Part shown: in pieces, positions 1 to 29,223 of the stretch | How positions within the stretch are numbered: position 1 is the first letter of the stretch | Layout of the letters: the number at the start of each line of letters is the position of its first letter | IMG/VR virus record: IMGVR_UViG_3300021426_000077 | Span: 36,428 to 100,427 of that record | DNA: 64,000 nt | Direction: 5' to 3' (one strand) | Source: a virus | Taxonomy: Duplodnaviria > Caudoviricetes | Translations under genes and position numbers: made by a program | Notes under the pieces: model-generated | Seen by the model: the letters and a program-made list of their open reading frames with translations, nothing else | The model's database searches: none | Told to the model about the DNA's origin: nothing

Positions 1-1557
1 AGCATTATTAGAAAGACGAGTTTGTCTTTTAATATTTTTTAAAATAGTAGATTCAGTTAGTTGTGAAACTAAATTTATATTTTTATCATTTTCTTCTTGG
101 TCTGTTAAAAATATTTTATTACCATTATTATCTATTATACATCAATTATATATATATTCGGGAAATAAATCATACTGTTCATTAAATCCTTTTTCTATAA
201 AAGTGGAATCTCCTATATCTTTTATTTTTATAGATATAGTGGGTAGCCCAGCATCAAAAGAAAATTTAGTTCCTAAATCTGATTCTAATTTTAATAATGG
301 AGTGTTTAACTCATTATATATAGAAAATTCATATTCTAATATAATATCATTATATTGAGCTATGCATTTATAATTATTTTTATATGCTGTATTTTCTTCA
401 ATTGTAGTAGAAAAAATTTCGTTTGTATTAAAATTATTTAATTCTTCTCATCCTATTCCCGCAAGAGTATTACTATTATTTGAAAAAGATTCTTTAAATC
501 AATAAAATTTAGTATTAATATTTGAAGAAAGATCTTCATAAAATTTTCTTAAAAAAGTAGCTTTAAATTGAATAGGATCAGTAGAATTTTCTGTAATAAT
601 AGAATTTGAATTATTATAAGGCTCTATTTTTAAACTGTAATCATTTATTTCTTGTATCTTTTTTAAAGGATATAATTGAATATTTTTAACTAAAATATCC
701 GGACCATTCGGATTACTAGGAGGCCAAATTTGTTCACGATTATAATCTTGAACAAATCCTTCTTGAAAAAATACAATACTATCTAAATAACTCAATGTTT
801 TTGTATTTAATTGAATAATATTATATTGATTGGATCATTGATTAAATAGAAAAGCATTTCCTATCATTTTATCTGAAGTTAAAATAAATTGTTCATATTT
901 ATAACTATTTTCAGAAGTATTTAAATTATCAAAAGCAAAATTAAAAATTAAACCATATTTTGCATTAGATTGTTGTCTTTGTAATAAATCTAAATTAGTT
1001 TGAAATTCTGCTTGAATCATTAAAGCGATTGCTTCATTTTTATATATATCTAAAATATTTTTATTAAAATTAATATCGTTATTATCACTATCTTTTTGAT
1101 AAATATATTGATAATAATGCGCAGTATTTGTATCATTTGAATTATTATTATCATGTCATGAATGTAATCCATATACATTATCTTTAATTGAAGTTAATAA
1201 ATTATGACTTAATTTAGCATAAGAATTAGATTCTGAAATAACAATTTGTTTCTGCATTTCATTCTGAATAGTTTTTGTGGCTCCAATAATAATTTTTTCA
1301 TTTGAAAAATTACCTTGTGGAATTAATACATAGACAGAAGTATTAGGAAGATATACGTCATCTACGCTTTGACAAATTGCATCAAAGGTACCACCGCTAT
1401 AATATACTTGATATACAGGCTTTCCATTTTTTTGTCCAAGATTTTTCTTAACTATTGCTGTAATAGTTTTATCTAATTCTAATTCATTGATGCGCTGCGT
1501 GACAATAATATCGGCAGCTTTTAGTAATGATTCTTGCATTGCTTGCATATTTGCCAT
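1..1557 (-). CDS. tail protein (distal tail/baseplate region), TGA=Trp, truncated at window edge
   Basis: Track fragments 1156-1557, 835-1020 and 499-795 share one frame and are separated only by TGA; the frame stays open to position 1; lies directly downstream of the tape measure. Confidence 0.7.
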
Positions 1558-1687
1558 ACTGCGCTTCCTTTCTGTATAAAAAAAGAGGGAAGAGTTAAAG
1601 CAATATTAACTCTTCCCTTAATATTCGCCTTATATCTCATTCTTTAATAATTAAAAAACAAAATAAAGACTTTACTGTTTTCTACCC

Positions 1688-4600
1688 TTAAATCTTTCTG
1701 TGGGCATATTGATAAGCTGTGTCAGCTAAATTAGTTAAAGCAGTTTCAATCTCGAAAGAATCTTTGACATTCGGGAATTCAGCTTTAATTTCTACTCTTT
1801 GATCAACAGTACCTCCAAAAGCAGAACTCATAAAGTTAGCTTTCATACCACTGGAAGAATAATTTGTTAAAGCACTACCAAGAGTAGAAGTCATTTGTCT
1901 AACAATATCAACCGCGGAAAGGATATTGCGTGTATCCTGAGCATTGAGAACAAGTTCTTTCTGATGAAGAACTGCAAGGCGTCCGTCCTTACCTCATTCA
2001 CCAGTGTATCCGCCAGTGTCAAATAGTTGATCTTCTTTAATTCATCCTAAATCGCCGCCATCTAGAGTTTCTATATGGATATTATATGAGCCATATCCAG
2101 AACCTCTTGAAAAACTTGAAATCCTAATTTTATTTGCTTGTCCAGATAAACTGTTACCGAATCCGCCACCGCCTCAAGAATTTCCATAATATGAACCTTT
2201 ATATCCAGCAATTGAGCCATTTGGGAAAGTTTTTTTCGTAGTTGCAGATTCCATCGTAGACGTTGAAGTAGAAGTCGGTTTTTCTTCTGCAGGTTTAGCA
2301 TCTTCAGGTAATGGAGCCTTTGTTTCATATACTAAATTATCTGTATTAATTTTTTGTAAATCGTTAATAGCTTCTTGAGCTTTACTTAATCAATCAACAG
2401 CTGCGGCTAATTCTTCAGTATATTTTTTAATATTATTCATGCCTTCAGTTAATTTTTCATTTTGATTTTTAAAACTGTCTGTTAAAGAATCCATCGCATT
2501 GTTTAATCCATTTTCGCCAGTAATAGCATTGGCAGCATCTTCTAATGCAGGCCTTAAACCAGTTTCTTCATCAATTAAAGCTTTCTTAACATCTGTAATA
2601 ACACCATCTGGACCAGTTAATTTATTACGAAGTTCTTCTGCTTCCGTTTTTAAAGTATCATTCATAGTAGAAGTTGCATCTTGTATATATGGGAATAATT
2701 TCTTTGCTAAATTATTTCCAAAATCCCATCATGCAATATCTGTATTTTCTATTAAGTTGCCTTGATCATCAAATAATTGTCCAAGCATTTCTTGAGCAGC
2801 TGCTGCAATATCTGCGGTACCATTTTCTACCATGAAGTTTAATACATCTGACATACCTAATTGACTATCTGCTAAATCTTCATTAAGATGCTTCATATAA
2901 TTTAAGAATTTTTCTGTTAATTCTCGACTTTGTTTTATGCGTTCTTCTTCAGTTAGATTCATATTTTTATTTAAATCTGCCCATTGACTAGCATAATCTT
3001 TTAAAGTATTTCCTAATTCTTCTGCTGTTTTTTGCCTTTGTTCTTTTGTAAGTTCATAAGCATCTTGTACTGCTTGCATATACTCTTGACGAGCTTTTGC
3101 AATATCATTTTGATTTGCACGATATACATAACGATAATTACCTTGACTATCTCGACGTAACTGCATTTGGTTTTTATTTTGTTGAGCATCCTCAAGGGCA
3201 ATCTGTTTTTGAAGAATTAGAAGTTTAGAATTAGCTAATTCAACATCATATTCAGACATAGATTCTTGATTCTTTAATAAATCTAATTGTTCTTGCATTT
3301 GTTTGCGGATTTTGTTTTGAGTAGCTAAAGATGAACCTTGAGCATCATTAAGTAAATCATTATATTTGCTACGAAGCTGTTCAATTTCAAATGTCTTTTC
3401 AACTTCATCTCGGTAATTATCAACTATCTTCTTATTTCATTCTCAATTTTGATTAATATGATCTAGATTATCTTCACGGATAGTCGCATTGTACATTTGC
3501 TGAACTGCCGCATCAATAGCATTCTCATAAGCTTCAACGAAAGTCTCCGCAGACTCTTGAGCTATATCGCGCATTTCATCTTGAACATCATTCATACGAT
3601 CTTCAATAGAATTTGCTAATTCTTCGTTTCCAGTATCTAAAGCTTCTTGATATTTTTTTTGTCAATACTTATAAATATTAACATATTGACCTAATTGAGC
3701 TTTTAATGTTTCAGCTTGACGTTTATTAATGTCGCTTAAAGCTTTATAACTTTCGTCTCCATATGATAAAGCATATATATCAGCTAGATTTTCGAGCTCT
3801 TCTGCAAGACGTTCATATTTTTCAAGTTGACGATCTTGCTTATCAGCTATTTCATCAAAACCATCAATAACAGTATCAACAATATCTTCTTGTAAATCCT
3901 GTCAATCTTGACTTAATTCAAGAACTCTTTCATATCCTTCTTGATATGCTTCTGCTAAAGCTTTTTGATTATCTCCAAATGGATTTTCACCAGCTGTTGG
4001 ATCATTTCTATATCATTTTTCAAGTTGCTCTAAATCAGTTGTTGCAAGGCCAAGAAGACCATTCTTTAACCTATCATCTGTTAAGCCTTCTTTTAATCCG
4101 GTAAAATAATTAATTGAAGCTTGAATTGCTTCTTTTTCTGCTATATCATCTGTAGCATCTTGAGCTGCAAGTTTACCATTAATAATTTCTTGATAATATT
4201 TCTCTGCATCTTCTCGTCCAATTTCAAAACTAGTATTTAATTTAAGAAGATCAACAGTTAATTCTCTAAATGGAGAATCACTAGGCATACCAGTTAAGAA
4301 ACCTTGAAATTCTGCTCATTTTTCATTTAAATCTTTAAGATTATCAATAGCTTCCATAGAAGTTTTATAAAGTTCAATATTAATATCTGTAATAGAATCT
4401 TTAAGCTCTTGAATTTTATTCTTAGTAGATTCAATTTCTTTTTGAATATCATTTTGTCTTTGAGCATTCTCAAGGATTGCTGCAGAATAATCATCATATT
4501 TCTTAATAGCTTCATCAATAGTTTTTGTTAGATCTTCATTACCCGCAGCTGCCGCAGCATTATATTGGTCAATTAATTTATTATGTGCTTCATCAATTTT

Positions 4601-7600
4601 TGCAGATATAGTTTCATAATTAGTAATGATACCATTTTCATCATATTCTGGAGCAGGAATATTAAAGTTAATACCACGACCTTTAAGAATATCTTCAGCA
4701 AGTTTGTCCTTAGCTTCCATCGCGGCTTTTACATCTTTTAGCTCGCTATCGGCCGTATCTTGAAGAATTTTTAAACGTTCTTCTTCAAGTTTAATTTCTT
4801 GCTGAATTAAATTAATTTGCTTTTGCTGATTTGCTCGAGCTTTATCACCAATTAATTTATCTTCTTGCTTTTCAATTCCAGAAAGTTGTTCCTTAAGTTT
4901 ATCTAATTGAGAATCAACTTTCTCATAATAGTTCTTTTTATGTTCTTTCTTTTCTTTTGGCTGAATGGTTTTAGCTTTGCCACCGCCACCGCCACCACCT
5001 TTGTTGTGGGCAAGAATTTGATTATGACCAACATAGTAATTGTGGTTATCAGAAACTTCAAAGTTATATACTGTAGTAGTTTGAATCTTAACATTAATAT
5101 TAGAAATTACATGTCAATTTCCATCGGCAAACAATACATAATCTCCAATATTAAGTTCAGAAGCCATGATTCATTCGATATCATGCTTACGTCTAATATA
5201 GAATCTGTGGATACCTGTTACGCTAAGAGTTTCATCTTCAATATATAAATCATAAATTTCTTCTGTAGTATTATGAATCATTGTTTGAAGAACTCTGCTG
5301 TATTCATTCTGATGATTTTCTTCATTATATGAAAGAACAATATCACCAACTTGAATTTTTTCAATTTCTTTAAATGAATTTTGGAGAGAGACTAGAGTGC
5401 CTGCAATAAAACAGCTACCGCCACCTCCGCTAGAACGAGGTGCAGCACTACCAGAGCGTTTTTGACTTCCACTGCCACCGGTTTTACGAGCAGTAGAACG
5501 ATTAATATGAAGATTACCTCCAGAACTGTAACCTCCTGAAGTAGTTTTCATTGAAAGTGCTGTTGTAGTTGAAGTCGCAGTATCTGTCATTGGCACTGGC
5601 TCCATACGAAATCCACCTATATGAAAAGATCCTGTAACAGTATCTAATCCAGTTCCAGCTTCATTTAATTTTACCGGAGCACTAACAGGAACATTTATAC
5701 CACCAGTTTCAACTGGTCTCCAGCCATAAGCTTCTTTTTCATCTTCAGTAATTTCACTTTCTTCTTTAACCTCTGCATCTACACCCATTGAAGATAAATA
5801 TTGTTGAGCTTGATCAGCTGTCATTCCAGCTGCATTAATAATATCTTCAAAAGCAGCTAATAATTCTTCTTCTCCACTTAAAGAAGCGCCTATTTCAATA
5901 TCATCTCAACCATTATCATAAAGGATTGATCGAAGATTTGCTGCAGCTTCATAGGCTTGAGTATCATCCATTCCAGCTTGAATTAAAATATCGGTTTGAG
6001 CTGCTTCTCATAAATCTCAATAAGCATCAATATCGCCATTTATCGCAGCTTCTAATGATTCAAGATTATCAGGATCAACAATAAAAGCATCAGACAAACT
6101 ATCCGTATCTAAATCTAACAAATCTTCATAAGTATTTCTTAATTCTTTAGTTGTTTTAGCTAAATCTTCTGGATTAGCATTTTCAAGATCCTCTAAAACT
6201 TCTTTTCAATCATCTATATTATCAACAGTCCGTTCAACAGCTTTATTATATCTTACTTGAGCCTCTGCTGCTTCTTTAATAATACTAGGAAAGTCCTCTA
6301 TATCATCTGCATATTCTGCTAATTGATCATTATATTCATAAATTGCTTTTGCTGTATCTTGTAATGTTTCATTATCCACATCACTATCTGAAGAAGTAAT
6401 TGTTGAAAGATATTCTTTTGGATCAGTATTTAATCCATTTCCTGTACCTGCTAAAATATCGTCAATAGAAATACCATTTTCTAAGCCTTCTCGAATTTGG
6501 CGCAATAATTCAGCAACTTTAGTATCAACTTCCGGATCAGATCAATCAATTAAACTGACAACAGAAGCTTTTTGTTCTGCAGTTAAGTCATATTGATCAC
6601 TTAAAGTATCAATCATCGCTAAACCACGATCACCTTTTTGAGCTCCTCAACTATTTGTGCCATTTTGAGAAACTTGATATTCTGCCAATGCCATTTGTGC
6701 TTCTGCTGCAGCGTTTAAATTATCTGTCCATTCTGCAGCTTGTTGAGCTAAAGCTATTTGATCTTCTAAGACCAATCCAGAAAAACCATCTATAATTTGT
6801 AAATCAGCGATAATTTCTTCATAAGACTGAGCTTCTCTTAATGCACTATCTTTAGACAAAGCATTCGCTTGTACTGCAGTTTCTACTGTTTGTTTATTAT
6901 AATCATAACTATCTTGATTTTGCTGGATGATTGTATCATAAAGACCAATTCTTCTCTCAAGCTCTGTGTTATTATCTAAAAGATTTTGATAATCTTCTGT
7001 AGATAATGTATTTGCTTCACGCATAAGACGATTTTGATTTTCTAATAATTGATTAGCAGTTTCTTCTCTCATTTCTTTAGCAGTTTGAAGCATTTCTGCT
7101 GGATTATTAGAAGTATATTCTGTATCTCTTTGACTTTGAGCGCCTCTTCCACCACCTCTATGCGTTGTGGTTGTGGTTTCGATGCCTAATCTTTCTCTAT
7201 CTTCTGCACTTAATCTATAAGCATTAGAAAAATCATATTCAGTAGCTTCTGTATTTTGTCCTCGTAAAACTGCATTATAATTTAATTGAGCCGCAGTAGC
7301 TTCTTCAATTTTTTGTCTTAAAGTTTCATAATCATCAGCTGCGGTTACTACAACTTCAAGAGCTTCAGCTTGTTCTTCTAGTGCCTGACGTAACTCATCT
7401 GCGCCTTCTCCAGTTTGCTTTCATGATTCATATAATTTATCAATATTTTTTAACCCATCTTTTAAACTGGCAGTATATTCATCTGAAGCACTTATTTGTT
7501 CTTCTAATAATCTTTGTTGTTCTTGGCTTCATTTTTGATAAGCAAAACTCATAGCTACTATTGCGGCTAACCCAGCTAATGCTGCAAAAGTAGCTAATTG

Positions 7601-10498
7601 TATGGCTGTTGCTTTAGCTGTTTCTGCGGCAGTAACTGCTTTAGCAGCTGCTTCATGCTCTATTTCTGCATCTTTTAACGCTTTTTCAGCCATTTGACTT
7701 TTTTCTAAAGCTTGTGTAACTCCAATCTGCTTTTTTTCTAAAAAGAAAGCAGAAGCACCACTACTTTTTTGAGCATCTGCTAATGCTGCTTGAGCTTTTG
7801 TAAGATTCTCAGAAGCATTCTTTACCCTTTCTTGTGCTTCTTTATATTTCTCCATAGCTTGACTTGCTTTATCTTGTAATTCACCAATTTTTGATATAGA
7901 TGAAAAATCAATACCTTTTAAATTTTGAAAAACAGAAGATAAATTTAAACCAGTTATTCTTTTAAAAGATTCATATAAAGTAGGAAGCGAAAAACTCAAA
8001 TTTGTAACTATCTGAAGTAATTTTTCACCCGTTGTTAAATCTGCATTATTTCAAATAGAAGGTAAATTACTTAAAGATTGCATTGCAAAACTTAACTGAC
8101 CAAGTGCTCCAACAATATTAATAATTTGTTGAACACCATCTTGAGAACTCATTCCCTGTTTAAAAGATTCAGCCAATTTACTTGAATCTATTGCTGCTGT
8201 ATCCGTATTTAATTGATTAAGATTAGCTTGATCTAATTTTTTAAGATCTATTTGACTTAAACGTTCTAACTCTTCTATTAACCTTGCAGTTTTTCCTGTA
8301 AGTGCAGCTGTTTGAGTCCCAGCTTCTTTTTGATTTTTTCCAATCTGTTTTATTGCTGCATTATATTCAGTATATTGCTCTCCACTTAAATATGGTTTTA
8401 ATTTTTCTAATGATTGTTCTAATTGTTGAGTAGACCCAGAAAATATTTGGCCACTTTTTTCAGCATTTCTTAATTGATTTTGATATTCTTGCAAAGCTTT
8501 ATTAAATTCAAGTAAGCCTTCTTTTGCAGGCTCTAATTTAGATTTTAAATTAGCAAAAAGATCTTTCTTTTCTTCTTCAGAAAGTTCTTTTAATTTTTCC
8601 ATTAATTGTGAAACATTTACAATACCTTCAGAAAGAAAAGGCGTAAAATCTTTATCTAATAAACTAGCAATTCCAACACCAGTTGCAGACAAAGCTTGAT
8701 CTAATTTTTCCGCTGCAATTGTAGCAGCATTTCCATTCTGAATTAATTCTTGAAGAATAGTATTTGCTTGATTTAATTGATCTGGACTAAAATTTTGAGC
8801 ATTAACTTGCATATATTTAGCAAAATCTAAAGCATTCTGACTGTATTGATTATCTGGATTAGGATTAACCATTCCTAAATTTGTTAAAGCAGCTTCTGAA
8901 TGTTCTAAATTAGCTATTTTTTGCTGTTGAACTTTTTGATTTAAATTAAAATCATTAATACTTTGAGCAAGATGTTTACTAAATAATTGAGTAAAAGCCG
9001 AAGCTAAGCCAAGAATAACAGTTGATCCTCCACCCACAGATTTAAATAATGTATCAAAAACTTCTGCTAATTTGGTTAAAGTATCAATTAATGGATAAAC
9101 CATATCAGTTGTAAATACATCATTAAATAAACCTTCTAAAGTAGCTTGTAATTTAGCTGTTCTACCTTCTAAAGAATCTAAATATTCTTGATTCATTTGT
9201 TCAAGAGTACCAGAAGCATTTATACCAGTAGCTCCAAGATATTCTTGATACATATCAGAATTATCCATTAAAGCAGTAAAACGATTAACTTGATGTTTAC
9301 CTGCCAGTGTCTGTGCGACAGCTTCTTGAGTGGTATCGTCTAAATCTTGTCAAATTACCATTAAATCTTCCATGATATCGTCCATATTACGGACGTTACC
9401 AAGAGAATCTAATACTTGAACTCCAATATTTTGAAGTGTCGAAGTAACTTTGCCAAGACCAATACCATCTTCATCTTCTTTACCTAATTGCAAATCAGAA
9501 AAACGAGCATATAATGTTTTAAGACCATTACCAATTTGTTCTGGCGCTTCTCGTGTTACAGACTCAATTGTAGCAATTTGCGCAGCAAGTGCTTCGCCAC
9601 TAACACCAACTGCATTGGCCATCGAAGCAGCTCTCTGAGATGCCAACGCAATTTCTTCAACATCAGCCGCGGAAATATTAGCAATTAACGCTCAATTATC
9701 CATTGCTTGACTGAGCGCTTCCATGTCATCTTGTAATCCATATGCATTCATATATGCGGTAATTTGATCAGAAGTCGCCGCAGTATCTTGTTGAGAAGCA
9801 TTTGCAAGTTTAGCAGATAAAGTGGCTAATTGCTGAGACTGATTTAAATCATAGCCTTGCTGAGCAAAAATTAACGAAGCATTAGTCATACCCACGGTAG
9901 TTTGACCTACAGCTTTTGCTGCTTCATTAGCTGCTTTAGCATATTCATTCATGCTATCACGGCTATAATCGGTAACAAGCATGATTTGAGTTAGTGAATC
10001 ATCTAATTCTTTAGCATATTCTACTGAACTATGAATTGCATTCATAAATTGACTAAAGAAACTTGAAATTAACCCTCAACGAAATGTATTTTGAAAAGTA
10101 ACAAACATTTTATCTAATTGAGAACTAGTACGAATAATACCAGTATCTAATTTTCCAAGCTGCCCTATTAAATTATTAAATGCAACTTGTCCTTCTGCTC
10201 CCATTTGACCAAAAGCTGTTTTTAATCCTTGGGCTGTAACACCATTATTTTTAAGTTCTTGATTAAATTTAGCTAAATTTAACATTCCAAGAGAAGGATT
10301 AAAAGCTTCTGTTAAAGCATCTCCTAAACCATGAATTTGATCTCGAGCATCAGAAAAGGTTTTTTCTTCTAATAAACCTTTATTACCCATATTCTGCAAT
10401 TTTAATTCTAAATTTTGTAATTCAGTTTTTAATTGAGTTATACCTTTAGAATCTAATTTAGTAGAAATATTATATTCAATACTATTAGAATATTTCAT
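1688..10498 (-). CDS. tape measure protein (~2,936 aa, TGA=Trp) with internal Hint domain
   Basis: 13 track fragments fall in one frame (8811 nt); TP901-like core (AKELDDSLTQIMLVTD, TREAPEQIGNGLKTLYARF); coiled-coil body; C-terminal FDTGGYTGEW...AVLHQKELVLN motif. Confidence 0.93.
5003..5413 (-). other. Hint (intein-like, BIL-type) domain, 137 aa, inside tape measure
   Basis: CFIAGT...IEKIQVGDIVLS...TGIHRFY...W(TGA)IMASELNIGD...VYNFEVSDNHNYYV...ILAHN then Lys; flanked by Gly-rich linkers. Confidence 0.9.
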
Positions 10499-11246: not shown

Positions 11247-12854
11247 TTATCCAGATATATATTGAGATAAATTAGCTAAAGAAATGCTTATAGCAACTTT
11301 AGTATTATAAAATTCATTCATTACTGCTAATTTAGTTTTTTTAGATCTTTCTTCAGCAGCTTCTCTTGGAGTTTTAAAATTATCTGATATGTCAACATAA
11401 GATTGCGCATTAATTAACTGTAAATAATCTCTATCTAATCCATGTCCAGAAATGGTTGCATGTGCTGCTACTCTTTTACTTGTAACAACTTCTAACATAC
11501 TTGATAAAACTTGCTGTATAGTAAAAATTCGACCATTTAAGCTCATATAAAAAGCTTGATCATTAGCTCCATCAAATCCCGCCAATGCAGCTAAAGTTGC
11601 TCTGTAAGGAATAGTTTCTTTAAAAGCATTTCATGATCCATACAATAAATCACTTTCTCCAAATGCTGGTAATGTAGCTCCCATATTAATTAAAGTAATT
11701 AATTCACTAGGAGTTAAGTTAGCTTCTCGTGTTAATAATGTTAATAAAGGAGTATTGTCTTGAATGTGAATATTTATCAAATGACCTTCATTATTGAAAG
11801 AAATTTGTTCATAATCTTTTATTGTTATACCTACAATACCCTCTATTGAACTATCGGAAGAACGAATTTGAATATCAGAGACATTTGTTTTATTATTTTT
11901 AACATTGTATATACTTCCAGCTTCTCTTTTATCTAATTTTAATTCATCCATTCTATATTTTTTTAATTCTTCATATCATTCTCCGAATTCACCATCTTTT
12001 GAAAATCTTCTTTCAATATCTATGCCAACGCCAGACGTTTGACTACCAGATAAAGTAGCATTCTGTAAATTTACATGTAAAGAATTTTCTAAAGCAGAAA
12101 AAAAATCTGATTCTCCTTTAACATAAGCTTTTAATATAGCTCATTCAGTAAGCATATCTTTTATATCGCCCATTCAGTCATTAATTTTATCTCCTATGCT
12201 ATTTCAAAAATTCTCATTGTCTTTAACAAAATCAGAATCTAAAAGTCCTCTTAACATATATAGACGTAGTAAACTTTGATTAATACCTTCTTTAGATTCT
12301 GTTCCTAATGGATACCAAAAAATTTTTCCTTTATATGTAGAGCTCATAATTGATTCATAAATACGTTCTTCTTCGGTTTTTCCTCACGATTTTTTTACTC
12401 CAGTAGTATTTCTAGCAATAAATTGATATTTAATCGCTTTATAATAAGCATCTCTTATTGTAGGATTATATTTATCAAATGTATTTAAAACTTCATCAAT
12501 TTTTTCTTTGACCTCTTGAGCATTTTGTCCCATAGATTTTATTTCTGGTACTAATTTCGCTATTGCTTCTCTTGCTCCTGGAAAAGCCATATCAATAGGA
12601 GAAGAATCTAATACAGATGCATTTAACTTTTTTATTAATTCTTCACTATGAAGAATATCGTGTAAATTTTGCATATCTTCGCCTGAAATTTCACTAAAAC
12701 GCATTTCTTGCCTTTTTGTTTGTTGTTTTATGGCATTTTTTAATATATCTGTTTTTGTTTCTGCTATTAATTTTACAAAATTATCTCCTCTTTGTTTAAG
12801 AAAATCTTTTTGTCTAAGAAAAATATAATCATTTACAGCTGTCAAAATTTTCAC
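11247..12854 (-). CDS. hypothetical tail-module protein (TGA=Trp)
   Basis: Three track fragments in one frame joined through TGA codons. Confidence 0.7.
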
Positions 12855-15271: not shown

Positions 15272-15286
15272 AAAACAACACACCTA

Positions 15287-15907
15287 TTAATAAGAACCAT
15301 TTAAGTCCTGATGTGAAGGTAGTGTAGGATCAAGATTTACGCTATCATCTGCATTAGAATGAGTTGCAATATACCTTAAAACAATTCCTCCTAAATATTC
15401 GTTCATTACAATTTCGCTAGCACCCATAAATTGTAAAGTACCAATACCAGAAAGTTTAGTGCCATTTAAAATACCATCAATATATCCCGCAATTTGATAA
15501 GGACGAAGTTTATAATCATCTAATTCCCAATAGTCTAAATGACAAATAATAGAAAAAGTAATTGTACAATCACGATATTGTGGATTACTTGTAGGAATAA
15601 AATCATCAAATTCTAAAAGAATATATGCTTTAACCTCTTCATGCTCACCAAATTCAAGTTTAGGAACATTTTTAAGATACTGCTTATCTTTTAAATCTTG
15701 AAGATTCATACCATCAATAATTTCTTGATATTGTATCTGAGTATCATCAAGACAATCCGCAGTATTAAGCACTAAAAGTCGTTTTAATTTATCAGAATAT
15801 GGGCGACTTTCAATAAAAAGTCGCCGCCAAATCGTTTCTTGATCTGTTTCGCAGGAGAGAAAAGTAGATTTAAAATTATTAGCTAACAATACCGATGCTT
15901 TTTTCAT
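15287..15907 (-). CDS. neck/tail completion-like protein
   Basis: Start MKKAS with RBS; position between head closure and tail tube genes. Confidence 0.55.
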   Translation of the reverse strand: MKKASVLLANNFKSTFLSCETDQETIWRRLFIESRPYSDKLKRLLVLNTADCLDDTQIQYQEIIDGMNLQDLKDKQYLKNVPKLEFGEHEEVKAYILLEFDDFIPTSNPQYRDCTITFSIICHLDYWELDDYKLRPYQIAGYIDGILNGTKLSGIGTLQFMGASEIVMNEYLGGIVLRYIATHSNADDSVNLDPTLPSHQDLNGSY

Positions 15908-17027
15908 TCTTATCTCCTGTAAATGATCCAATAGTAACAGGTAAAGTATAAGTTTCATTATCTTCAGTAACACACGTTAAAGTAAACTTACCTTTGCGAC
16001 CAGTTAATACTTCAAGTTCGCACTTAGTACCATCTTGAGAATTAATACGAACTAAAGAAGAGTCTACACTAAATGTACCATTAGCTTCATAAGTATAAAT
16101 ACCATATGGAGCAACTGTATCTGGTCCATTAATATATCCTCTTTGTCAATCTATTGTTACTTCTAAACTATACTCACCATAGTTAATAGTGTAAGTACCT
16201 ATTGCGCCATCATGAATTCTAACTTTACACATATTTCCATCATTCATAACATCTACGATTTCTACTCTTGGGTTGCCAGTAACAAACCAAGAGAAAGAAC
16301 TTTGTAAATAAGATTTTGGAATATAATATCCGATAGTAGTATCTTGCGGGACTAGTGTTTCACCAACGATAACAGATTCAATATCGTCAGCTTTCTTAAT
16401 TTCCGGAAGTTCTGCAATTGGATTGTCATAATATTCTTGAACTTCTATTTCAAGAATGCCTGGGACAGAAATACTATCTGTAACTTGGACTTCTCAAATA
16501 TGTCCATCAACTTTAATATGTGTAAAACGTTCAAAAAATTCACGAGTTTGTTTATTTAATTTTATAAAAATAGTACCAGAAAGATTTAATTCATTAATAT
16601 TAATTCCACGTTTTTGAAATCAACGAATATCTGTCTCTGTCGGACCTTGAAAATAAATTCAGTATTCTGTATCATCAATTGTAATAGTATATCTACAACG
16701 AATGATTTCTGAACGGAGATATGCTGTTTCTGTTAAAATTGGAAGATATACCATCCAATGGGTACAATCATCTAATATTTCAAAAACATCCCCAGCTTCA
16801 AGACCTGCATCATATTCAACAGATAGAATTTTTTTGTCATAATCTGGTTTTAAATTATTTAAATTTATAAGTGCGGGCCAAGCTTCACAAAGAGGAGTTT
16901 TAATTAATCTACTATTATAATCGTTTTTTAATGCGGCCCGCAGACTATTTAATTTTTGTTGATTAATTCGACCTAATGCATTTCCTCCTTGATATTGAAG
17001 TCGCGCACTAAGAGTCTTTAATGACAT
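15879..17027 (-). CDS. head closure/neck-like protein with beta-rich (Ig-like?) C-terminus (TGA=Trp)
   Basis: Frame reads through several TGA to TAA at 15879; track shows only the first 122 aa. Confidence 0.65.
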
Positions 17028-19398: not shown

Positions 19399-19399
19399 T

Positions 19400-20131
19400 T
19401 TATTGCGCTCTCTTTGAATGTTCTTCTAAAACTGTTTCTCAATCCATCTCTTTATATTTTTTTATATATTCACGTCGTGGGACTTTGATTGAATTTTGTC
19501 ACTCTCTATATCCTGCAAAATGCACAATTGCAGGTGAATCAGTATAGCCAGTAACTTTAGTTTCATTATAACAAACAGGAATCTCAGAAACATGATCAGC
19601 AAAATAATTTACCGCATCTTGATCTACATAAGGTACTTTTTTATTATTTAAAAAATCAATTAATTTTTCATCTTTTTTAAATTTACGCATCTTATCTAAA
19701 TCAAATAATGCGACTCCAGCATTATAATACAATGGACCGTAGGGTTTGTAAGTGGACAATGTTTCTTCCACCATTGCGACTCAATCATCTTTTCTTAAAA
19801 AATCTCAAATAGGATTAATATCTCTTACACAAATAGTATCTACATCAAGTTGAAGTATTCTACTAACTTCTGGTAATAATTGAGTATAACAAACTCTAAT
19901 CATAGCCATATAAGTGAATTGTGTTCTCATATTTGGACCGTCTTTAGGAAAAAACTTTTGCCCACTTACATTATGACATTGAATTATATCTGGAAGTTCA
20001 TGCGGAAAATTATTATCTTCAATGAAAAAATGAACTGTATCTACTGAGCTATTCGCAATAAGTGATTTAGCTGCAGTTTCCATTGAATCATATAAGTTTC
20101 TTGTACCTGTATATGCCGCATGCTTTTCCAT
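19400..20131 (-). CDS. glycosyltransferase family 8-like (TGA=Trp)
   Basis: RILQLDVDT, YYNAGVALFDL, VDQDAVN, IVHFAG motifs across two track fragments in one frame. Confidence 0.88.
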
Positions 20132-21252: not shown

Positions 21253-21269
21253 TCTACATCCTCCCTTCA

Positions 21270-21764
21270 TTAAGCCTTAATGCACTGAAGCTTGACCGCA
21301 GGTTGACCATCGGGTAAAGTATACTCTTTAACAACCTTGAAAACAAGATCGCCAGAATTACCCGCAGTAAGAATACCATCATTACCAGGAACAACGGTAT
21401 CGTTAACCTTTAGGCTAGTGCCATCAGCAAACATGTTAGTAGTAAAAATATCACCAGCTACAAGGCCAAAGACGCGAGGATAAATCTTGCCATCATAAGA
21501 ATCCTCAACCTTTTGAGCCCAATCCTTGTGCATCTGATGACGCTCATCATAGAGCTTTTCCTCGTTGTAGACGAGCATCCAAGCGCCGTCGCCTGTAAAG
21601 TTAACCTCGCCAGCAGCGTAGTCATACTTTACAAACATGCCATTCTCAAGAATGGTAATATTTTCAGCAGCAGGGAGCTGTGCATAAACACGACCGTCAC
21701 GAGGAGCAGAAAGATGGTTAGGCTCAACCTGGCCGTAACCCTCTCGTTTAAATGTAATAGCCAT
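21270..21764 (-). CDS. capsid decoration/minor head protein
   Basis: Between scaffold and capsid; GYGQVEPNHLS...LENG...GDIFTTN...TLPDGQPAVK. Confidence 0.65.
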   Translation of the reverse strand: MAITFKREGYGQVEPNHLSAPRDGRVYAQLPAAENITILENGMFVKYDYAAGEVNFTGDGAWMLVYNEEKLYDERHQMHKDWAQKVEDSYDGKIYPRVFGLVAGDIFTTNMFADGTSLKVNDTVVPGNDGILTAGNSGDLVFKVVKEYTLPDGQPAVKLQCIKA

Positions 21765-21784: not shown

Positions 21785-23119
21785 TTAAAGATTTTTAGTT
21801 TGACGAAGTGCTTCAAGGAAAGCAGGAACGCTCTCAGATGCTTCTTCGTCGAGAGAGAAAGTCATAGCAGGAGCTGTCTCGGATTCAGATTCAACTTCTT
21901 CTTGACCATCAATCATGTCAAAGTTAACATTTTTCTCAACATAAATAACAGCTAGTTTAGCCTTAATTTCATCAAGACTATACTCGCTCTTATGAGCGAT
22001 AACGTCAGCCTTATCCTCGTCAGAAAGCATATGATAAGAAGCAATTAATTTATCCTTCTTTTCATTTTCAATATTTAGCTTAAAATCACGAAGTTCAGCA
22101 ATCTCTGCGCGAAGAGATTCATTTTCGCTAACTAAAGCCGCATATTCTTCTTCTGTACGGGTAAACTGAGTCTGCTCTTCTTCAGTCTCGGCCTTGTCTT
22201 CGACTTCTTCTTGAGCAAACTCTTTAGAATTAGCTTGATCATCAGCTGTTTCTTCGACCGTTGTATCAACAGCCGCAATATCATCTACAGATTCCTCTAC
22301 AAAATCCGCAGCAGGCTCTTCTTTAGGCTCTTCCTCAAGAGCATGCTCAAGCTCTGCTTCTTCTGTAGTCTCTTCTGTTAGATCAACATTTTCGTCAGAC
22401 ATGTTCAACCCTCCTTTACTATTGAGCGCTGTTTGTAAATCGTTCATCATCGTAAATAAGGTTTGCTGGAACTCCACGCCTTGAGTAAAGTTCTTACTTA
22501 CCTCTGGAGATGTAACCGAAGCGCCTTCATAACAAGGTTCAACATCATCCCCAAGAATGCACAACTTACTAAAAGTTGCGTCATTAATAATGAAGAAATC
22601 TACACCAAGATTATTATCAGTTGCCCAATGACCTTCTAGAGTTTGATCATCTAGTTCCATTGATTGCGGCTGACCTTCGCGAAGTACCTTGGTAAGTTCT
22701 TCAAATTGACCAACTCATAAATAACCAGTTGTCATTAAATAAGTGCGTTCAACTTGATTACCAAATTCATCTGTATCAATGAAATTTTGGAATCAAACTT
22801 CTGCATCAGGTGAAACGAAACCATAAGGAATAGTTTTGCAAGAGAATGTTAATTCACCATCCTCGATATGCATTATATGCCCATGATCGCCAAAATCTTC
22901 TTTATCTTTATTAAACGCCGCTACGATAGGTGTGCCACGTAAAGTTTTAGCCATACCTTCCGCAGTCTCACGATTAATATAAGACCCATTGCGATTATGT
23001 CCCAGATAAAAAACTTTAATCTCGCACTTAGACATTAAAGGGTTAATATCAAGGGGTTGTAAATTAATAAACTCAGGACCTTGAATCATATCTACCTCAG
23101 ATTTATTTTTTAATGCCAT
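21785..23119 (-). CDS. prohead protease/scaffold (TGA=Trp)
   Basis: NRNGSYI...QSMEL...LCILGDDVEPCYEGAS protease-like motifs followed by an acidic coiled coil; two fragments in one frame. Confidence 0.8.
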
Positions 23120-23134: not shown

Positions 23135-24694
23135 TTAACCCTCAGATTCTTCATTTGCGATTGTTTTGTCTGATTTTTCATCTGGTGAAAGCTCTGGGCG
23201 TCCACCTTGCTCGTCCGCAGATGCGTTTCCATCATTATCGCCACCAGACTGTTGAGTTTTGCTAATGGTAGAAGACATCTGAGGAGGAGTAAATATCTCA
23301 ACAAGCTCCATAATTTGATTCTCAAATATGGCAGTAGCAAGTACTGTACTTGGAGATTGTCCAAGAGCAACTTGTGGTAAAAGTTTAGAGAAGCCAATTT
23401 GAGTTTGCTCTTTATAAAGCTTGGAAAGATCTTTGTAATTATAAATTGTTGTGGGTAACATTTGTACCCTATATAAAAGACGCTTTGGATTCTTGTTAAA
23501 CATCTTTAACAAAGACTCCGCATAATCTTGGAATTGTAGAACTAAATCAAACATTGTAGCTTCATCATTTGCAATTGACTTTTCAAGCGCTAAATTACCA
23601 CTTGTATTAAATTGCATTTGACTAACGCCAGCTTCATTATAGACTGTTCTTTCCACTTTCTCGAGCTGGTCGGCCGCAGACTCATTACTGTGATCAGATA
23701 AGTCTTCAACTTTAACATCTGCAAAAGTAGTAAGAACATTAATACCAATTGCTTTGCCTAACATTTCAACTGCATTCTTATGAAGTTCTCGAGCTTCATC
23801 TACGTCAAATATTAAGTCACCATTTTTATCAATTGGCATCTCTTGGATGATTAATCTAAGAAGTTGTTGTTCCATCTTTTGTTTATCTAAATCTTGAGCA
23901 TCTTCAAGATCCATTAATTTTGGAACAATAGAAATAAATAATGGAATATCTGAATTGTTTAAATTAAATTTAACAGTACATTCTGGATCTAGAGTAAACC
24001 AGCCTTTTCCACTACCAACGTAATCTTCATCCATTTTTCCATGCTTATATTTAATATAAGCTTGTTGGAATTCTTTGGGGAACATTTTTAAAACTTTAAT
24101 GCGATAGTCTACATCTTTAAATTGTTCATCAAAGAATTTAACATTAAATTCTATAATATAATGCCCATTTAATTTATATCTTGAACGACAATAATCAATA
24201 GGAAGTTCTTGTAGGTAGGCCGCATCTTTTTGTTCAATTTTATATCCATAATAACAGCCGTTCCGGAGTACCTTAAGTGCAATTTCCCCAAAGGTGCTCT
24301 TTAAACGACAATTATCTAAGAATGTATTAGTCTTTAGTCAACCTTCAATAACTTTATCATCTTTAATTTTATCATCATATCTGATAGGAGTAATTATCCA
24401 ATCATACCGATATAGATAAGCCATATAACGACAAAGGCGAGAGTAAATACCACTTTTAACAAAGAAATAATTGGAAATGGAACGGAGTTCTTTTGTTTCA
24501 TTATTCTCCAAAGCCCTCATTATATCATGTTTTTTAATTCTGTGATGATGATTACGATCAACAAATTCAGATGCTTTAATTACAACATCATCTCGATAAA
24601 TTTGCCCGTTAATTCTCATTTTATTAAATTCATGCGGAGACCGTGTTGAGTTATTTTCTGAGGCAATTAAACGGAAATCTTTTGTATCACTCAA
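23135..24694 (-). CDS. portal protein (TGA=Trp)
   Basis: ~519 aa after readthrough of TGA at 24338; between terminase and protease. Confidence 0.8.
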
Positions 24695-24706
24695 TATTCG
24701 ACCCCC

Positions 24707-25063
24707 TTAATAACCAGCTGCTTTCATAATATAATCATATGATAATTTGGCTTCATCATAATAAGGAATACAAATTAGTTTTATATTATGAGCTAAACAA
24801 TATTTACGTTTTTGCATATCATTATATTTTTGCCGTCCTACACCTTTTTTCCCACCAAATTTATCTACTGCTGTGTAGTGTTGTTTACCCTGAGCTTCTA
24901 TTAAAAATTCAAGCTCACCATCCTCCGTAAAAACGGCAAAATCAAATCTTAGATGCCTGCCACTAGAAGCAACTAAATCATCAAACTCATATTCTTCTTC
25001 AAAGGGAATATCATAATCAGTTAAAATATTATGAATTTTAACTTCCATAGTAGAACTCATCAT
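24707..25063 (-). CDS. PD-(D/E)xK/Vsr-like endonuclease (DUF559/DUF2726-like)
   Basis: LRFDF...LIEAQGKQHY...NDMQKRKYC...IKLICIPY. Confidence 0.75.
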   Translation of the reverse strand: MMSSTMEVKIHNILTDYDIPFEEEYEFDDLVASSGRHLRFDFAVFTEDGELEFLIEAQGKQHYTAVDKFGGKKGVGRQKYNDMQKRKYCLAHNIKLICIPYYDEAKLSYDYIMKAAGY

Positions 25064-25144
25064 AATATACCCCTTACGTCAAAATATTTATTCAATTAAA
25101 TATGAATCTCTACAATATGTAATTTTCTAATTTTGCCCCAAAAT

Positions 25145-26893
25145 TTAATTATAAAACATAAAGTCTTTAATATTTCTTCTTTTAATTTTCTTTGAACGAT
25201 CTTCTTGTAATTTACAATAATATAAACCATAAATTAGAGCAGAAAACTTATCTTTTTTAATCTTTTTTGAATTCTGTTTTAAAATAATATTTGCACCTTC
25301 ATTATCTGTAATTAAATTAGCCATTTGTTCTTTTAAAATAGAAGTTTGAACAAATGGCATCAGATAATCTGCACGTTGAGATTGAGACATTTTCTTACCT
25401 TGAGCTTGTGACATTAATTTATTCTTCGCGGTAGTCTCGTCAATTAGAAATAACACGCGGCCCGCATTAATCTCTGACTGAGTATAAGAATACATTTCTG
25501 AGTTAAGACCAACATTAGCTTTCATTATATACATAGCTTCATATATTGTATTTTCAGTTTTCATATTTTTGTAATGATTATCTTCATCATTCATAACGCC
25601 CCAATTATAGAGCGTTTCTCCCGTGTCTGGATCTACAGTATCCATTGTCAACATATCAACAAGACCTGCGCCTAAACCGTTACCGTCGATAACCGCAACT
25701 TTACAGTGATATTGCTGGAATAAACGCTTTAATTTAAGAGCTTGCATACCAAAATGCTCTTCCTCAAAACTGTAAATATTAACAACTCGTTTGCGGGGAA
25801 TATCGCCAGAACTAGGAGTGACCTTAATAATAACTGCTTCTGTAGAACAACCAAATCTACCAACGTCAACACCAATTACATAATAACCATCTTTAGATGT
25901 TTTGCTAGAATATTTTCATTCCGGAAGATTAATACGGCGATTGCGATCAAATCTTTCTGAATTAAAGAAGGCAGACTCTACATCGCCTGACCAATGAGAT
26001 TCATACTCACGTTCAAAAGAATCCTCATTAAAAGTACCATCTTCGCGTAAATCCCGCACGAAATTCTTACTAAGAAGACCTTCCATTACAGGAACTCTCC
26101 AAGAGCCACCTAAAATCATAGCTTCTTTTGGACGCGCTACAGACATGCAAAGTAACTGAATAAGTTTCTCATAGCTAAATGTGCCTTTATAGCCTGCTGA
26201 AGTTACAAAAATTTGTGATTTATTTAATTGCTCTTTTGGATCAGTCTGACCTTGAATCATACGGTCAACATTAAGTGTAGGAAGTAAAACTTCATTAAGA
26301 AGATCTTGATCTAAGCTTACACATTCCTCCGCAAGTAAACTTTGAAAACGACGTCCACGAGTCTTTTCACTTTGAGCAACATTTTCTAGAGAACTGCCAT
26401 TTTTAAAAGTATAAATAACAGTATCTTTTGTGCGGGATGTTCGAGCACGTGTACCTCTAGTATCTCATATAATTTCTCGTTCCATTGCTGGAATAAGTTT
26501 ACAAATTTCGTCTACTTTTCCGCCAAGAATTTCTGCAGATTGTCCTTTACCGCCCGCAACAGTAGCTATTTTAGCACCAGGATAAAGAACACATCGCAAC
26601 ATTAATGCCATAATAGAAATAAAAGACTTGGATCAAGCACGAACGAAAGTCGCATAGACATATTTATGTCTAAAAATAATTCGTAAAAACATTCTTTGAT
26701 AAAAATAAAATTTAAAATTATATGGATTTCCAAGAGATAGATAGTAATCAACTAATTTATCTGGATAAAGACGTCAATAAGCAATTAATTTTTGATATTC
26801 TGATAAATTATTATGTACATGTAATTTAATTGTTTCATCATCTAAATCTATATCTTTTTTATTAGATGTTTTTAATATATCTCTAAGAGCCAT
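25145..26893 (-). CDS. terL: terminase large subunit (TGA=Trp)
   Basis: Walker A-like RAW*SKSF, RGRRFQSLLAEEC, VTSAG motif, nuclease GVDVGR / IDGNGLG / KDKFSAL; all in one frame. Confidence 0.92.
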
Positions 26894-28134
26894 TAAATAT
26901 CACCTGCTAAGAATCTTTCAAGAGCTTCGGCTTCAGCTTCAACTTCATTATCAATGAAATTACCCCAATCTTCAGCTTCTTCATCTGTGAGTGTTTCTGC
27001 CTCAGCCTCTTCCGCAGACGTTACAAGGCCCGCATTTAAATCAATTTCTGAATTTTCAGCTTTCTCAAGCTTCTCAATATAAGATTCAATTAGATCGCCA
27101 AGACCTAATTCTTCACTTACAAGAGCATAATTATAAGCTTTAAGGTCTTTAATAGTAAAGTCTATTTTATCTTGCGGATACTGGTCTGGATCAAATTGTG
27201 GTAAATTAGGAATTATACCTCCATCTTGTTCACAAAGACGTACTAATTCTCCAATAGAAGAGAGAACTTGCTGTCTATCTTCTTTATTTTGAGCTTCAGT
27301 AAACTTACCGCCTTTGCGGAGTTGGTCAAACACGCCCGCGAGATTCTTATATCCTGTTAAATCTCCAACATCTAAACATTCATCCATTTTAAGAGATGTT
27401 TTGCACATCTTTTTTAAAACTTCTTCTCGGTCTGTATTTAATTCGTACTCTTGGGCATATTTATTATACATTGTTTCCATTTTAATTCATTGTTCTGGAG
27501 TATAAACAGTACCTCATTTTAGCATTAAATAATTTATATCTTCTTCTGTGAGTTGATCTGTCCAATAAGTAGCTGAGATTTGATATTGCGGCGTCTGCTC
27601 TTGCGGTGTAGAGGGCTCAGCCGCATCTTCCATTTCTACAAATTGAATATTTTCAGAATAAGGTACATCTTTAGCATTAGTACGAGTTAGAGTATCATAT
27701 TGACCTTGAGAAATTTCTCCAGCTTGAAGTTTTTCTAATAGCTGTTTCTCATAGTCCTCATCATTTGTAGATTCTTCGTTTTTATCTTCTGCAGGATCGG
27801 GCTGTTTTAAGTGGTCGGAATCCGCAAATGTGTAATCCGCATATTGAACCATATTCATTGTGCGTAAGTAAGTACCTATTACAGATTTGGGTCCAAATTT
27901 AGCTGGATCTTTTAAATAGCGTTCATTTGTAATTTGAATTCACTTTTTTTCAAAATATGGAACATCAAACATTTCTAATATTCAAAGAAAAGTTTCAGGC
28001 TTGCGATTATCTATATATTGTGTTAAACAATCTTTACATAGATCGCATCGTTCACCTGTTTTCATTTTAAAGAAGTCAGTCTCTTTTAATGAGCGCCCGC
28101 ATTTACTGCAAGTTTTTTTACCTACAGTTGGCAT
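26893..28134 (-). CDS. Zn-finger protein upstream of terminase (possible small terminase; TGA=Trp)
   Basis: CSKC...CKDC N-terminus; track fragments in one frame; stop overlaps terL start. Confidence 0.7.
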
Positions 28135-28146
28135 ACTTCCTCCTTT

Positions 28147-29223
28147 CTATTTATTTTTAGCGCGGCTTGCGTTTTTGCAATCTTTACATTGAGAATACCA
28201 GCCATCTTTGCTCGAATTCTTCGCATAGAATAGCGGGTGTCCTAATTTCACTCGGCCGCATTTACTACATTTTTTTCAATATCCTTTTTCTTGATAAGTA
28301 TAATATCAAATAACATAATCTTTCGCATATTGTTCTGAAATTAATTTAGGAATTCTTTTGCGCCATGTAGTTGAATAATATTGTTCGCTATGTCATTCTC
28401 CAAATTGATCATATAGCTTCTCTTGGATTTGTTCATTAGTAAGACCATCTATCTTATAGATTAAAAGTCACCATAGAACAGGATATTTATATTCAAGAGC
28501 TTTAGCTGCGGTATTTTCTAAGTCAATTAAATGTCAGTGCATATCAGAATGAAGATCTTCTCAACATTCTTGTTTTAAAATCTGGTAGTATTGAAGAAGG
28601 AAAGATATATGCTCTGAATTGAGAAGAGATAGGGGCATATCAGAATGCGGCATTTGCTCTTCATCAAAATAAATTTTTTCTGGGATGGGGATATTAGCTA
28701 ATGTTCTTATCTGAGATGCAGATTTAATTCTACCAATTTGGTTAAATGACCCTTTAATTAAATAAGCTTGTTTTCAAGTATCAATGATAGCTTGATTTAA
28801 TTGCTTGCGTTTGTATTTAGATGCAGTAGTAAGTTGATTTTTTAAAGAGACAATTACATCCATACATTCTTTAAGACCTGGGATAGTATCTATATCTTCT
28901 TCTGTAATAGGGTCTTTAGGGTCTAGAATTTGGCCTTTATCTACTCGGATAAGATTATAAATACCATCTTCGCCATTTTCTAGCTTATCAACTAAACCTT
29001 CATAGGATACTTGCCTCTTATCAATTGTAAACTCTCTATTGGGGGTTAATATAGGATATTTTTCTACTCGTTCTTTTTTAGTTTGGTTGCGGTCGTGTGT
29101 AAATAATATGTAATCTGCTAGTATTTTTAAAGTTTTACTATCATTAAGAGGATGATTTCCTAGAAGATCTTTTACGTAAGCTACTCTTTCTTCTGGAGTA
29201 GTAAGTGAGTAATCTAATTCCAA
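28147..29223 (-). CDS. HTH plus C-terminal Zn-finger protein, candidate late transcription regulator (TGA=Trp)
   Basis: KIDGLTNEQIQEKL...HSEQYYSTTWRKRIPK HTH-like segment; CSKC...CKDC; at least 7 in-frame TGA. Confidence 0.65.

Follow-up and report, generated by a model that had tools for sequence, protein, structure and literature searches.

How are the TGA codons that interrupt the morphogenesis, packaging and lysis genes of a gut phage to be read, and what reads them? The question is raised by the last 64,000 bases (hereafter the window, whose positions are used below unless a contig position is given) of the linear 100,427-bp IMG/VR record IMGVR_UViG_3300021426_000077, which is 72% complete according to CheckV. 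The record belongs to a tailed phage found in ruminant gut communities, with relatives among the large Firmicute siphoviruses and in the phAss-1 group, which recodes TAG. Near-identical sequence is present in public runs of nine studies, mostly of sheep, goat and other animal gut metagenomes, and the G+C content (GC) varies from 26% to 51% across the contig in 2-kb windows. A first-pass annotation of the window had proposed that TGA is read as tryptophan (Trp) across the genes named above, and our analysis bears this out. We consider, with a probability of about 0.87, that two codes operate in this one genome, the standard code in the early and capsid genes and a code with TGA as Trp in the late genes, TGA being decoded by a phage tRNA with the anticodon UCA, tRNA(UCA).

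The late operon and the meaning of TGA

Read with the standard bacterial code (table 11), the region 1-29223 consists of many short open reading frames (ORFs) on the minus strand; with TGA as a sense codon, these become long, non-overlapping minus-strand genes. In a greedy gene list made for the whole contig, the recoded block is a single minus-strand late operon, which runs from window position 29223 down to contig position 733. The right end of the block had therefore been placed correctly in the first-pass annotation, and the left limit had not, as the operon extends 36.4 kb past the left edge of the window. The 39 genes of the whole operon have 20,419 codons, of which 263 are in-frame TGA and 58 are TGG (19 genes, 9,879 codons, 70 TGA and 32 TGG in the window), and about four in five Trp codons across the late genes are TGA. 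All 39 genes end in TAA (31 genes) or TAG (8 genes) and none in TGA, in agreement with the earlier remarks that the genes end in these two codons and that TGG is used alongside TGA. Outside the operon, eight table-11 ORFs ending in TGA were found to be gene fragments or doubtful ORFs, and there was no convincing gene with a TGA terminator among the contig genes checked.

The comparison of coding density under codes 4 and 11, which the first-pass annotation had suggested, showed that the stop-to-stop ORF cover of the whole contig increases from 0.60 to 0.90 when TGA is sense. However, cover alone proves little, because the cover also reaches 0.89 when TAA is read as sense, owing to 333 spurious frames that then open up in this AT-rich sequence, and we rejected it as a test of recoding. 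The stronger point, and the discriminating one, is that full-length matches to phage families are obtained with the fused frames, including the portal protein (phrog_2739, 3e-89), the large terminase subunit (TerL), the tape measure protein (PhageMin_Tail and Hint), a glycosyltransferase of family 8 (GT8) and virion proteins; the claim that these genes become single frames when TGA is read through thus holds. Table 11 breaks two thirds of the phage into fragments, whereas table 4 gives back the terminase, the portal protein, the lysis genes, a tape measure protein of 2,936 residues and fibre proteins with 1,892 and 2,022 residues. The tape measure gene (1688..10498, minus strand; 2,936 codons, 25 TGA, 4 TGG, TAA stop; PhageMin_Tail 2.8e-23) is a single frame in this reading. 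Because TAA and TAG together are expected at about 5-6% of codons at 33% GC by our own estimate, a frame of this length without either cannot be a product of chance. Its 25 TGA codons would cut it into 26 pieces, 8 of them of at least 100 residues, and not into the 13 fragments counted in the first-pass annotation.

The amino acid at TGA is almost certainly Trp, and this identity is supported by four independent lines of evidence, namely codon exchange, a deficit of Trp, columns of conserved Trp and tRNA(UCA). Codon exchange was followed in eight IMG/VR relatives from other samples, with 46-99% protein identity. Although the relatives are kin to one another, and the counts are thus not independent events, the codon opposite a TGA of the phage was TGA in 103 cases, TGG in 18 and something else in 8, and TGG codons of the phage were aligned to TGA of the relatives 45 times. 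At this close range, therefore, the two codons behave as synonyms; TGA never exchanges with TGY, TCN, AGY or GGN, and rarely with TAT. As for composition, TGG-coded Trp amounts to 0.31-0.57% in the aligned stretches, about half of the 0.56-0.92% in standard-code relatives. The gap in the late proteins is closed by adding TGA, and tyrosine (Tyr) and phenylalanine (Phe) are at parity already without it. Among distant homologues, from the standard-code Enterococcus phage H1, Geobacillus E3 and Alicyclobacillus KKP_3916 and from the TAG-recoded phAss-1, Trp occupies 17 of the 117 TGA columns, the background frequency being 0.7%, followed by Phe and Tyr, while glycine (Gly) occupies 3 and serine (Ser) is also rare. 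The alignment of TGA columns to homologues that the first-pass annotation had put forward as a check is thus in favour of Trp. Furthermore, in the GT8 gene, two TGA codons stand opposite Trp in Neisseria LgtC (PDB 1g9r), where these residues belong to the motifs PLWD and DNW, and the Trp motifs that had been pointed out earlier were found again, with W87 of the Hint domain (DIEWIMASEL), W79 (REIYWI) and W215 (GYEWKY) of the GIY-YIG protein and the single TGA of the holin-like gene.

It is extremely unlikely that TGA specifies another residue, whether selenocysteine, Ser, Gly (code 25), Tyr or another aromatic residue. ARAGORN labels tRNA(UCA) 'SeC', the long extra arm and G73 of this tRNA are features that we take to be shared with tRNA-Ser, and the sum of BLOSUM scores over the TGA columns of the four distant relatives does not separate Tyr (57) from Trp (56). 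The close relatives and the composition settle this last point, as TGA swaps with TGG and not with the codons of the other candidates beyond a rare TAT, and the Tyr and Phe contents match those of the homologues without any contribution from TGA. Few TGA columns hold Ser or Gly. Code 25 was rejected on the 3 Gly in 117 columns and the lack of exchange with GGN. A tRNA for selenocysteine has an 8-bp acceptor stem and a 6-bp D stem, and serves few UGA sites, each with a selenocysteine insertion sequence (SECIS), together with SelB. In the phage tRNA the acceptor/T layout is 7/5 and the D stem has 4 bp, which does not fit that architecture, and a SECIS element for each of 263 TGA codons that exchange with TGG is not possible; selenocysteine decoding was rejected for these reasons. 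More improbable still, to the point of being negligible, is the possibility that the in-frame TGA codons are true stops of a decayed or defective phage, or an artefact of assembly. Nothing beyond the raw table-11 reading speaks for it, whereas the frames are open for up to 2,936 codons, their conservation extends across TGA in the eight relatives, 29 of 34 strain variants from other samples fall at third codon positions of the TGA-reading frames, and near-identical sequence recurs in the runs of nine studies; we rejected decay and misassembly on these grounds. Ten in-frame TGA sites were also unchanged in RNA-library contigs that cover parts of the late operon, and RNA editing is therefore not indicated; these contigs give neither expression level nor timing, and may include DNA carry-over.

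Gene classes and the code of the host

The late genes contain 263 TGA and 58 TGG codons, and all other ORFs, spurious ones included, contain 52 and 111 (Fisher p = 2e-27). Seventeen conserved early and middle genes, a set that leaves out six TGA-bearing genes, have 56 TGG codons and no TGA, although the A-ending share of the lysine (Lys), glutamate (Glu) and glutamine (Gln) codon pairs in the conserved early genes is about 0.5. In the TGA-bearing late genes, TGA makes up 0.85 of the Trp codons, compared with A-ending shares of 0.86 for AAA, 0.88 for GAA and 0.87 for CAA, and thus TGA is a neutral synonym in most late genes, whereas the conserved early genes and the capsid gene exclude it. Eight late genes are without TGA, among them the capsid candidate and its downstream neighbour, in which every Trp codon stays TGG in the close relatives L044, L045, L047 and L049. 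Codon use as a whole is also different in the TGA-free genes, which have a GC of 0.40 and a bias towards codons ending in G. In the relatives, TerL and the two genes at the head of the operon drift towards all-TGA; with 7-9 TGA, the first operon genes rank with the most heavily recoded ones in every relative.

Spelling Trp with TGG only, the conserved early genes, the capsid gene and its downstream neighbour would be translatable by the unmodified host machinery. In most of the late operon (tail, tape measure, fibres, glycosyltransferases, terminase, portal, holin and lysin), TGA acts as an ordinary Trp codon and never as a terminator, and it would be decoded by the Trp-type tRNA(UCA), which is located in a standard-coded tRNA array. 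The first-pass annotation had noted that the window has no gene for a release factor (RF) or for tryptophanyl-tRNA synthetase (TrpRS), and had recommended a search of the rest of the genome for RF1 and TrpRS. By profile search, neither an RF-1-domain (PF00472) gene nor a class-Ib synthetase (PF00579) gene was present on the contig. Likewise, no RF or TrpRS was found in five records that have the same tRNA type and TerL proteins 35-54% identical to that of the phage, three of which (G001, G003 and G004) are 91-100% complete. Because the phage is without such genes, tRNA(UCA) would presumably be charged by the TrpRS of the host. Full-length late proteins would then be possible only once tRNA(UCA) is present, and host RF2 would have to be outcompeted or disabled. 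A role of recoding in the timing of the late genes, which is a hypothesis, would fit the distribution of TGA among the gene classes.

A host that itself uses code 4, for example a Mollicute, whose code the phage would share and to which tRNA(UCA) would be an ordinary supplementary phage tRNA, had been named in the first-pass annotation as the case that would remove the regulatory interpretation. Such a host would account for late genes that use TGA as freely as any A-ending codon, for the lack of a phage RF1, TrpRS or known RF2 inhibitor, and for the absence of any context adaptation around TGA. However, AT-rich conserved early genes are TGG-only (10 TGG to 0 TGA in the gene at 61694-63493 and 56 to 0 over the set), and the capsid gene has TGG in all relatives compared. 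About 45% of the genes contain TGA by a rough tally (31 of the 39 late genes and about ten others), whereas Borges et al. (bioRxiv 10.1101/2021.08.26.457843) reported 26-71% of genes with recoding in phages of standard-code hosts and 90% where the host code is shared. Furthermore, the CHAP domain in the lysin of the phage implies that its host has peptidoglycan, and the protein relatives of the phage infect walled Firmicutes, the hosts being Enterococcus, Bacillus, Geobacillus, Lactococcus and Clostridia. The known bacterial users of UGA as Trp are wall-less Mollicutes and insect endosymbionts (PMC8629427). On this indirect evidence a code-4 host is highly improbable, and the host probably uses the standard code.

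A further possibility, which we find doubtful though quite conceivable, is that the recoding has no timing function. A UGA-reading tRNA-Trp and the loss of TGA stops under AT pressure would have come first, followed by codon capture, in which TGG drifts to TGA wherever translation speed matters little; early and very highly expressed genes would keep TGG as suppression is slower or leakier. At 0.85, the TGA share of the late genes equals the share that mutation gives to A-ending codons in the Lys, Glu and Gln pairs, TGA and TGG interchange freely between relatives, and the TGA-free genes deviate in their overall codon use. In addition, one and the same type of tRNA accompanies light (G003), moderate (G001) and heavy (this phage) recoding, and Borges et al. 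(bioRxiv 10.1101/2021.08.26.457843) described the loss of TGA stops at low GC as a precursor of recoding. However, drift would lead one to expect TGA at about half of the Trp codons in the conserved early genes, where it is found at 0 of 56, and this shows selection tied to gene class. The heavy recoding of the first late-operon genes in all relatives also speaks against drift. Selection by gene class is predicted by a timing device as well, and codon capture and timing are not exclusive.

Several points weigh against the reading of two codes in one genome with a standard-code host. The division between gene classes is not clean, as about six early or middle genes carry 1-2 TGA each (for example, the GIY-YIG gene at 57056-57718) and eight late genes carry none; when the six genes left out of the conserved set are counted with all other ORFs, spurious ones included, the ratio outside the operon is 52:111. 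The kinship of the eight relatives limits the weight of the exchange counts, and the evidence is drawn from sequence data. A gene for the code change could lie in the missing part of the 72%-complete contig, the TerL proteins of the relatives in which it was sought being only 35-54% identical. The base after TGA showed no bias away from good RF2 contexts (it did not differ from the base after all codons, p = 0.75, and differed weakly from the base after TGG, p = 0.07), which leaves no sign of context tuning against RF2, although as many as 263 TGA codons, with 56 in the most loaded gene, would have to escape the RF2 of the host. The nearest bacterial matches of the lysin are from Collinsella and Olsenella, at 36-43% identity, which is too weak to name a host.

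The late genes, all on the minus strand, are described here from the start of the operon. The first gene (28147-29223, 7 TGA) matches phrog_5767 (2.4e-36), labelled sigma factor; it had no Pfam, NCBIfam or PDB sequence match, and the putative identity as a sigma factor comes from the PHROG label only. It is followed by a gene with 4 TGA (26893-28134, phrog_3314) and by TerL (25145..26893; 582 codons, 4 TGA, 3 TGG), which has 5-7 TGA in the relatives. A free-standing gene resembling HNH homing endonucleases (24707..25063; phrog_9084, 2.2e-25), with no Trp codon, lies between the terminase gene and the portal gene (23135-24694, 1 TGA; phrog_2739, 3.3e-89). The next head gene (21785-23119, 2 TGA), presumably the one that the first-pass annotation had called a protease, matches only PHROGs without a function label (phrog_3313), and that name is not sustained. 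Then follow the gene downstream of the capsid gene by window position (21270-21764, 0 TGA, 2 Trp codons) and the putative major capsid gene (20155-21270, 0 TGA, 4 Trp codons; phrog_4088). The Bacillus phages Kirov and Thrax have distant homologues of the latter to which the depositors gave the name major capsid protein, and the label rests on this annotation; a single-sequence fold gave a predicted local distance difference test score (pLDDT) of 37. Two glycosyltransferase genes, one of the GT8 family (19400-20131, 4 TGA, 0 TGG; Glyco_transf_8, 1.1e-17) and one at 18751-19398 (3 TGA, 0 TGG), have PHROG matches phrog_1574 and phrog_12406. Further along the operon are a gene of 382 codons (15879..17027) with 4 TGA and 3 TGG, the counts being identical in the relatives L045 and L049, a late virion gene (14495-15283) and a virion structural protein gene (13209-14363, phrog_2729), both with 0 TGA, and a gene of 535 codons (11247..12854) with 6 TGA and 1 TGG.

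The tape measure gene comes next, and its product contains a Hint domain at residues of about 1693-1829 (PT-HINT, 2.8e-20; PDB 2lwy, 3.7e-20), with 2 TGA in the coding sequence. The domain (4994-5431, minus strand) resembles bacterial inteins and is without an endonuclease domain. At the left edge of the window lie the 519 N-terminal codons of a tail-module gene (1..1557, 5 TGA), which has 1,414 codons and 10 TGA in full (contig 33740-37984); Pfam and PHROG searches gave no match. Outside the window, the highest TGA load on the contig is that of a gene for a fibre-like protein with Listeria-Bacteroides repeats (L125:7429-13107, minus strand; 1,892 codons, 56 TGA, 5 TGG). At the far end of the operon, a holin-like gene with 1 TGA (contig 1734-2150, minus strand) lies beside the gene for the CHAP-domain lysin. 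The lysin had no PDB sequence match, and its three C-terminal repeats are, we assume from their resemblance, wall-binding repeats; no tool supported this. Beyond the lysis genes, at the start of the contig, there is a plus-strand ORF of 165 codons with 4 TGA and 0 TGG (L124:86-583), and TGA use is therefore not limited to the minus-strand operon. Judging from its N-terminal motif, this ORF may encode a RuvC-type resolvase, although no tool supported the assignment.

To the right of the late operon and divergent from it lies a module of small genes, mostly on the plus strand (29340..42900), which is conserved in L044 and L045. This module, between two minus-strand blocks, is 13.6 kb in length and has a GC of 0.43-0.51 compared with about 0.30 in the rest of the genome; its best-conserved frames are without TGA. 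The early and middle module (42919..63493, minus strand) has conserved genes that are TGG-only, for example those for a phosphoesterase (45565-46395), RtcB (48413-49672), a SpoU methylase (50210-50773) and a protein of 599 residues (61694-63493, 10 TGG and 0 TGA), all on the minus strand. The RtcB RNA ligase and the SpoU-family 2'-O-methyltransferase (48413-50773) are encoded near the tRNA array. The best matches of the methylase, TrmH and RlmB, were weak and indicated no clear subfamily. A tie of RtcB to termination was considered and rejected, as the model for release-factor-H-coupled RtcB gave only 71 bits against a cut-off of 272.

A tRNA(UCA) with a second arm

The early and middle module contains an array of 10 tRNA genes (55171..58683, minus strand), which includes the gene for tRNA(UCA) (57820..57911, minus strand). 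This tRNA, detected by ARAGORN and Rfam, is of the Trp type and 92 nt in length, with the anticodon at 57877-57879; the CCA end is not encoded. Its acceptor stem is 7 bp and its D stem 4 bp long, and these stems, the A1-U72 pair and the discriminator G73 are features of bacterial tRNA-Trp. The tRNA carries two hairpins in tandem. The loop of the first is CUUCAAA, which reads UGA, and the loop of the second (57849-57865) is CUCCAAA, which equals the normal Trp anticodon loop, with CCA at 57856-57858. Two further elements were seen in the array. A 78-nt RNA (55263-55340, minus strand) exceeds the Rfam threshold for tmRNA (56.8 against 47 bits) with its tRNA-like ends only; it has no tag reading frame and was not called by ARAGORN. 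The GIY-YIG gene (57056-57718, minus strand), which encodes a free-standing homing endonuclease and contains 2 TGA, starts about 100 bp downstream of tRNA(UCA).

Pattern scans of IMG/VR yielded 25 distinct tRNAs of the two-arm layout, most of them from contigs between 80 and 178 kb in length. When these are aligned, covariation is seen in each of the five helices, with 98.8% of the cells paired and changes on both sides in 19 of 26 pairs; in the extra arm, 4 of 5 pairs covary. The loop sequence U-C-C-A of the extra arm is invariant in the 25 sequences, including 13 that were found without requiring the loop, and 12 further matches of the loop-unbiased pattern were ordinary tRNA(UCA) of 71-72 nt. 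The complete relatives G003 (L133-L139, 135,791 bp, with direct terminal repeats) and G001 (L140-L145, 112,801 bp) carry two-arm tRNA(UCA). Since recoding is light in the former and moderate in the latter, phages with this tRNA span a gradient of recoding.

The two complete relatives carry two-arm tRNA(UCA) together with a plain tRNA-Trp(CCA), and therefore the spare CCA loop is not needed for reading UGG. One tentative explanation, on which we would not insist, is that the extra arm keeps a Trp anticodon loop so that the TrpRS of the host, an enzyme that recognizes the anticodon, can still charge a tRNA that reads UGA, and that the phage thus needs no synthetase of its own. Relatives that have both tRNAs and no TrpRS gene count in favour of this idea, as do the covarying stem and the invariant loop of the extra arm. 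If it were correct, the whole code switch might conceivably rest on a single RNA gene, that of tRNA(UCA). The amber suppressors of related phages, which have a related body, show a comparable arrangement, as their extra hairpin has a Gln anticodon loop (CUG or UUG) and, in one case, a Trp loop. Many IMG/VR tRNA(CUA) of 87-94 nt (L079, L084, L088, L097, L098, L106 and others) have a short extra hairpin with the loops CUCUGAA, CUUUGAA or UUCUGAG, which contain a Gln anticodon, and the hairpin thus follows the design principle of the tRNA(UCA) family. A Trp loop, GUCCAAA, is found in the extra arm of a tRNA(CUA) with a Trp-type body on a 146,105-bp IMG/VR contig (L123:7800-7891, plus strand). If the extra arm sets identity, TAG is predicted to be read as Trp in that phage. 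A blastn search of the long tRNA of phAss-1 against GenBank phages returned only the self match, and our literature search found no published description of tRNAs with two anticodon arms.

Comparison with other recoded phages

The phage matches the pattern of the TGA-recoded gut phages already described by Borges et al. (bioRxiv 10.1101/2021.08.26.457843). These authors found TGA-recoded phages in animal guts, including the Agate lineage of about 127 kb, with recoded structural and lysis genes, standard replication genes, rare TGA stops and a tRNA(UCA); the predicted hosts were standard-code Firmicutes, and the timing hypothesis was proposed there. Our phage is like the Agate phages in its animal-gut habitat, a size above 100 kb, a low GC, the concentration of TGA in structural and lysis genes with other modules left in the standard code, scarce or absent TGA stops and tRNA(UCA); the likeness is one of size, habitat and pattern. 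It shares with the Jade phages of the same study the use of TGA as Trp in lysis and late genes and a phage tRNA(UCA). However, RF1 and TrpRS genes, which form an operon and were reported in only two Jade genomes, are present neither here nor in the three relatives that share the tRNA type and are complete or nearly so.

The phage phAss-1, of the proposed Phassvirus (OQ749652, PMC10607447), is a true relative, with identities of 37.5% for the portal protein, 42.6% for TerL and 48.8% for the capsid protein. It is likewise a gut phage with recoded late genes and its own suppressor tRNAs, one of them with an extra arm. The difference is that phAss-1 reads TAG as Gln (code 15) with a tRNA(CUA), whereas TGA is read as Trp with a tRNA(UCA) here. 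Code 4 of Mycoplasmatales, Entomoplasmatales and their phages is similar in that UGA is read as Trp by a tRNA-Trp(UCA), GC is low and TGA stops are lost (PMC8629427). In these Mollicutes, however, the code is genome-wide, owned by the cell and accompanied by the loss of RF2 and of the wall, whereas here it concerns one gene class of a phage with a CHAP lysin. That the phage simply belongs to a code-4 host is thus unlikely, as its conserved early genes do not use TGA as Trp and it carries that lysin. Laboratory opal suppressors of tRNA-Trp have a Trp-type body with an anticodon changed to read UGA. The natural phage tRNA differs in that it keeps an unchanged CCA anticodon loop on an additional hairpin.

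Beyond what we found in the text of Borges et al., the present analysis adds that the TGA share equals that of other A-ending codons, that TGG is conserved in the capsid gene, and that the tRNA has a two-arm layout. It also contributes the absence of RF and TrpRS genes from complete relatives and a further, heavily recoded phage with the two-arm tRNA. The phage is a clean and heavily recoded example of two codes in one infection. It sharpens the question of how a phage may override the RF2 of its host within minutes with no RF or synthetase gene beside the tRNA, and it draws attention to the two-arm tRNA as the component on which tests should centre.

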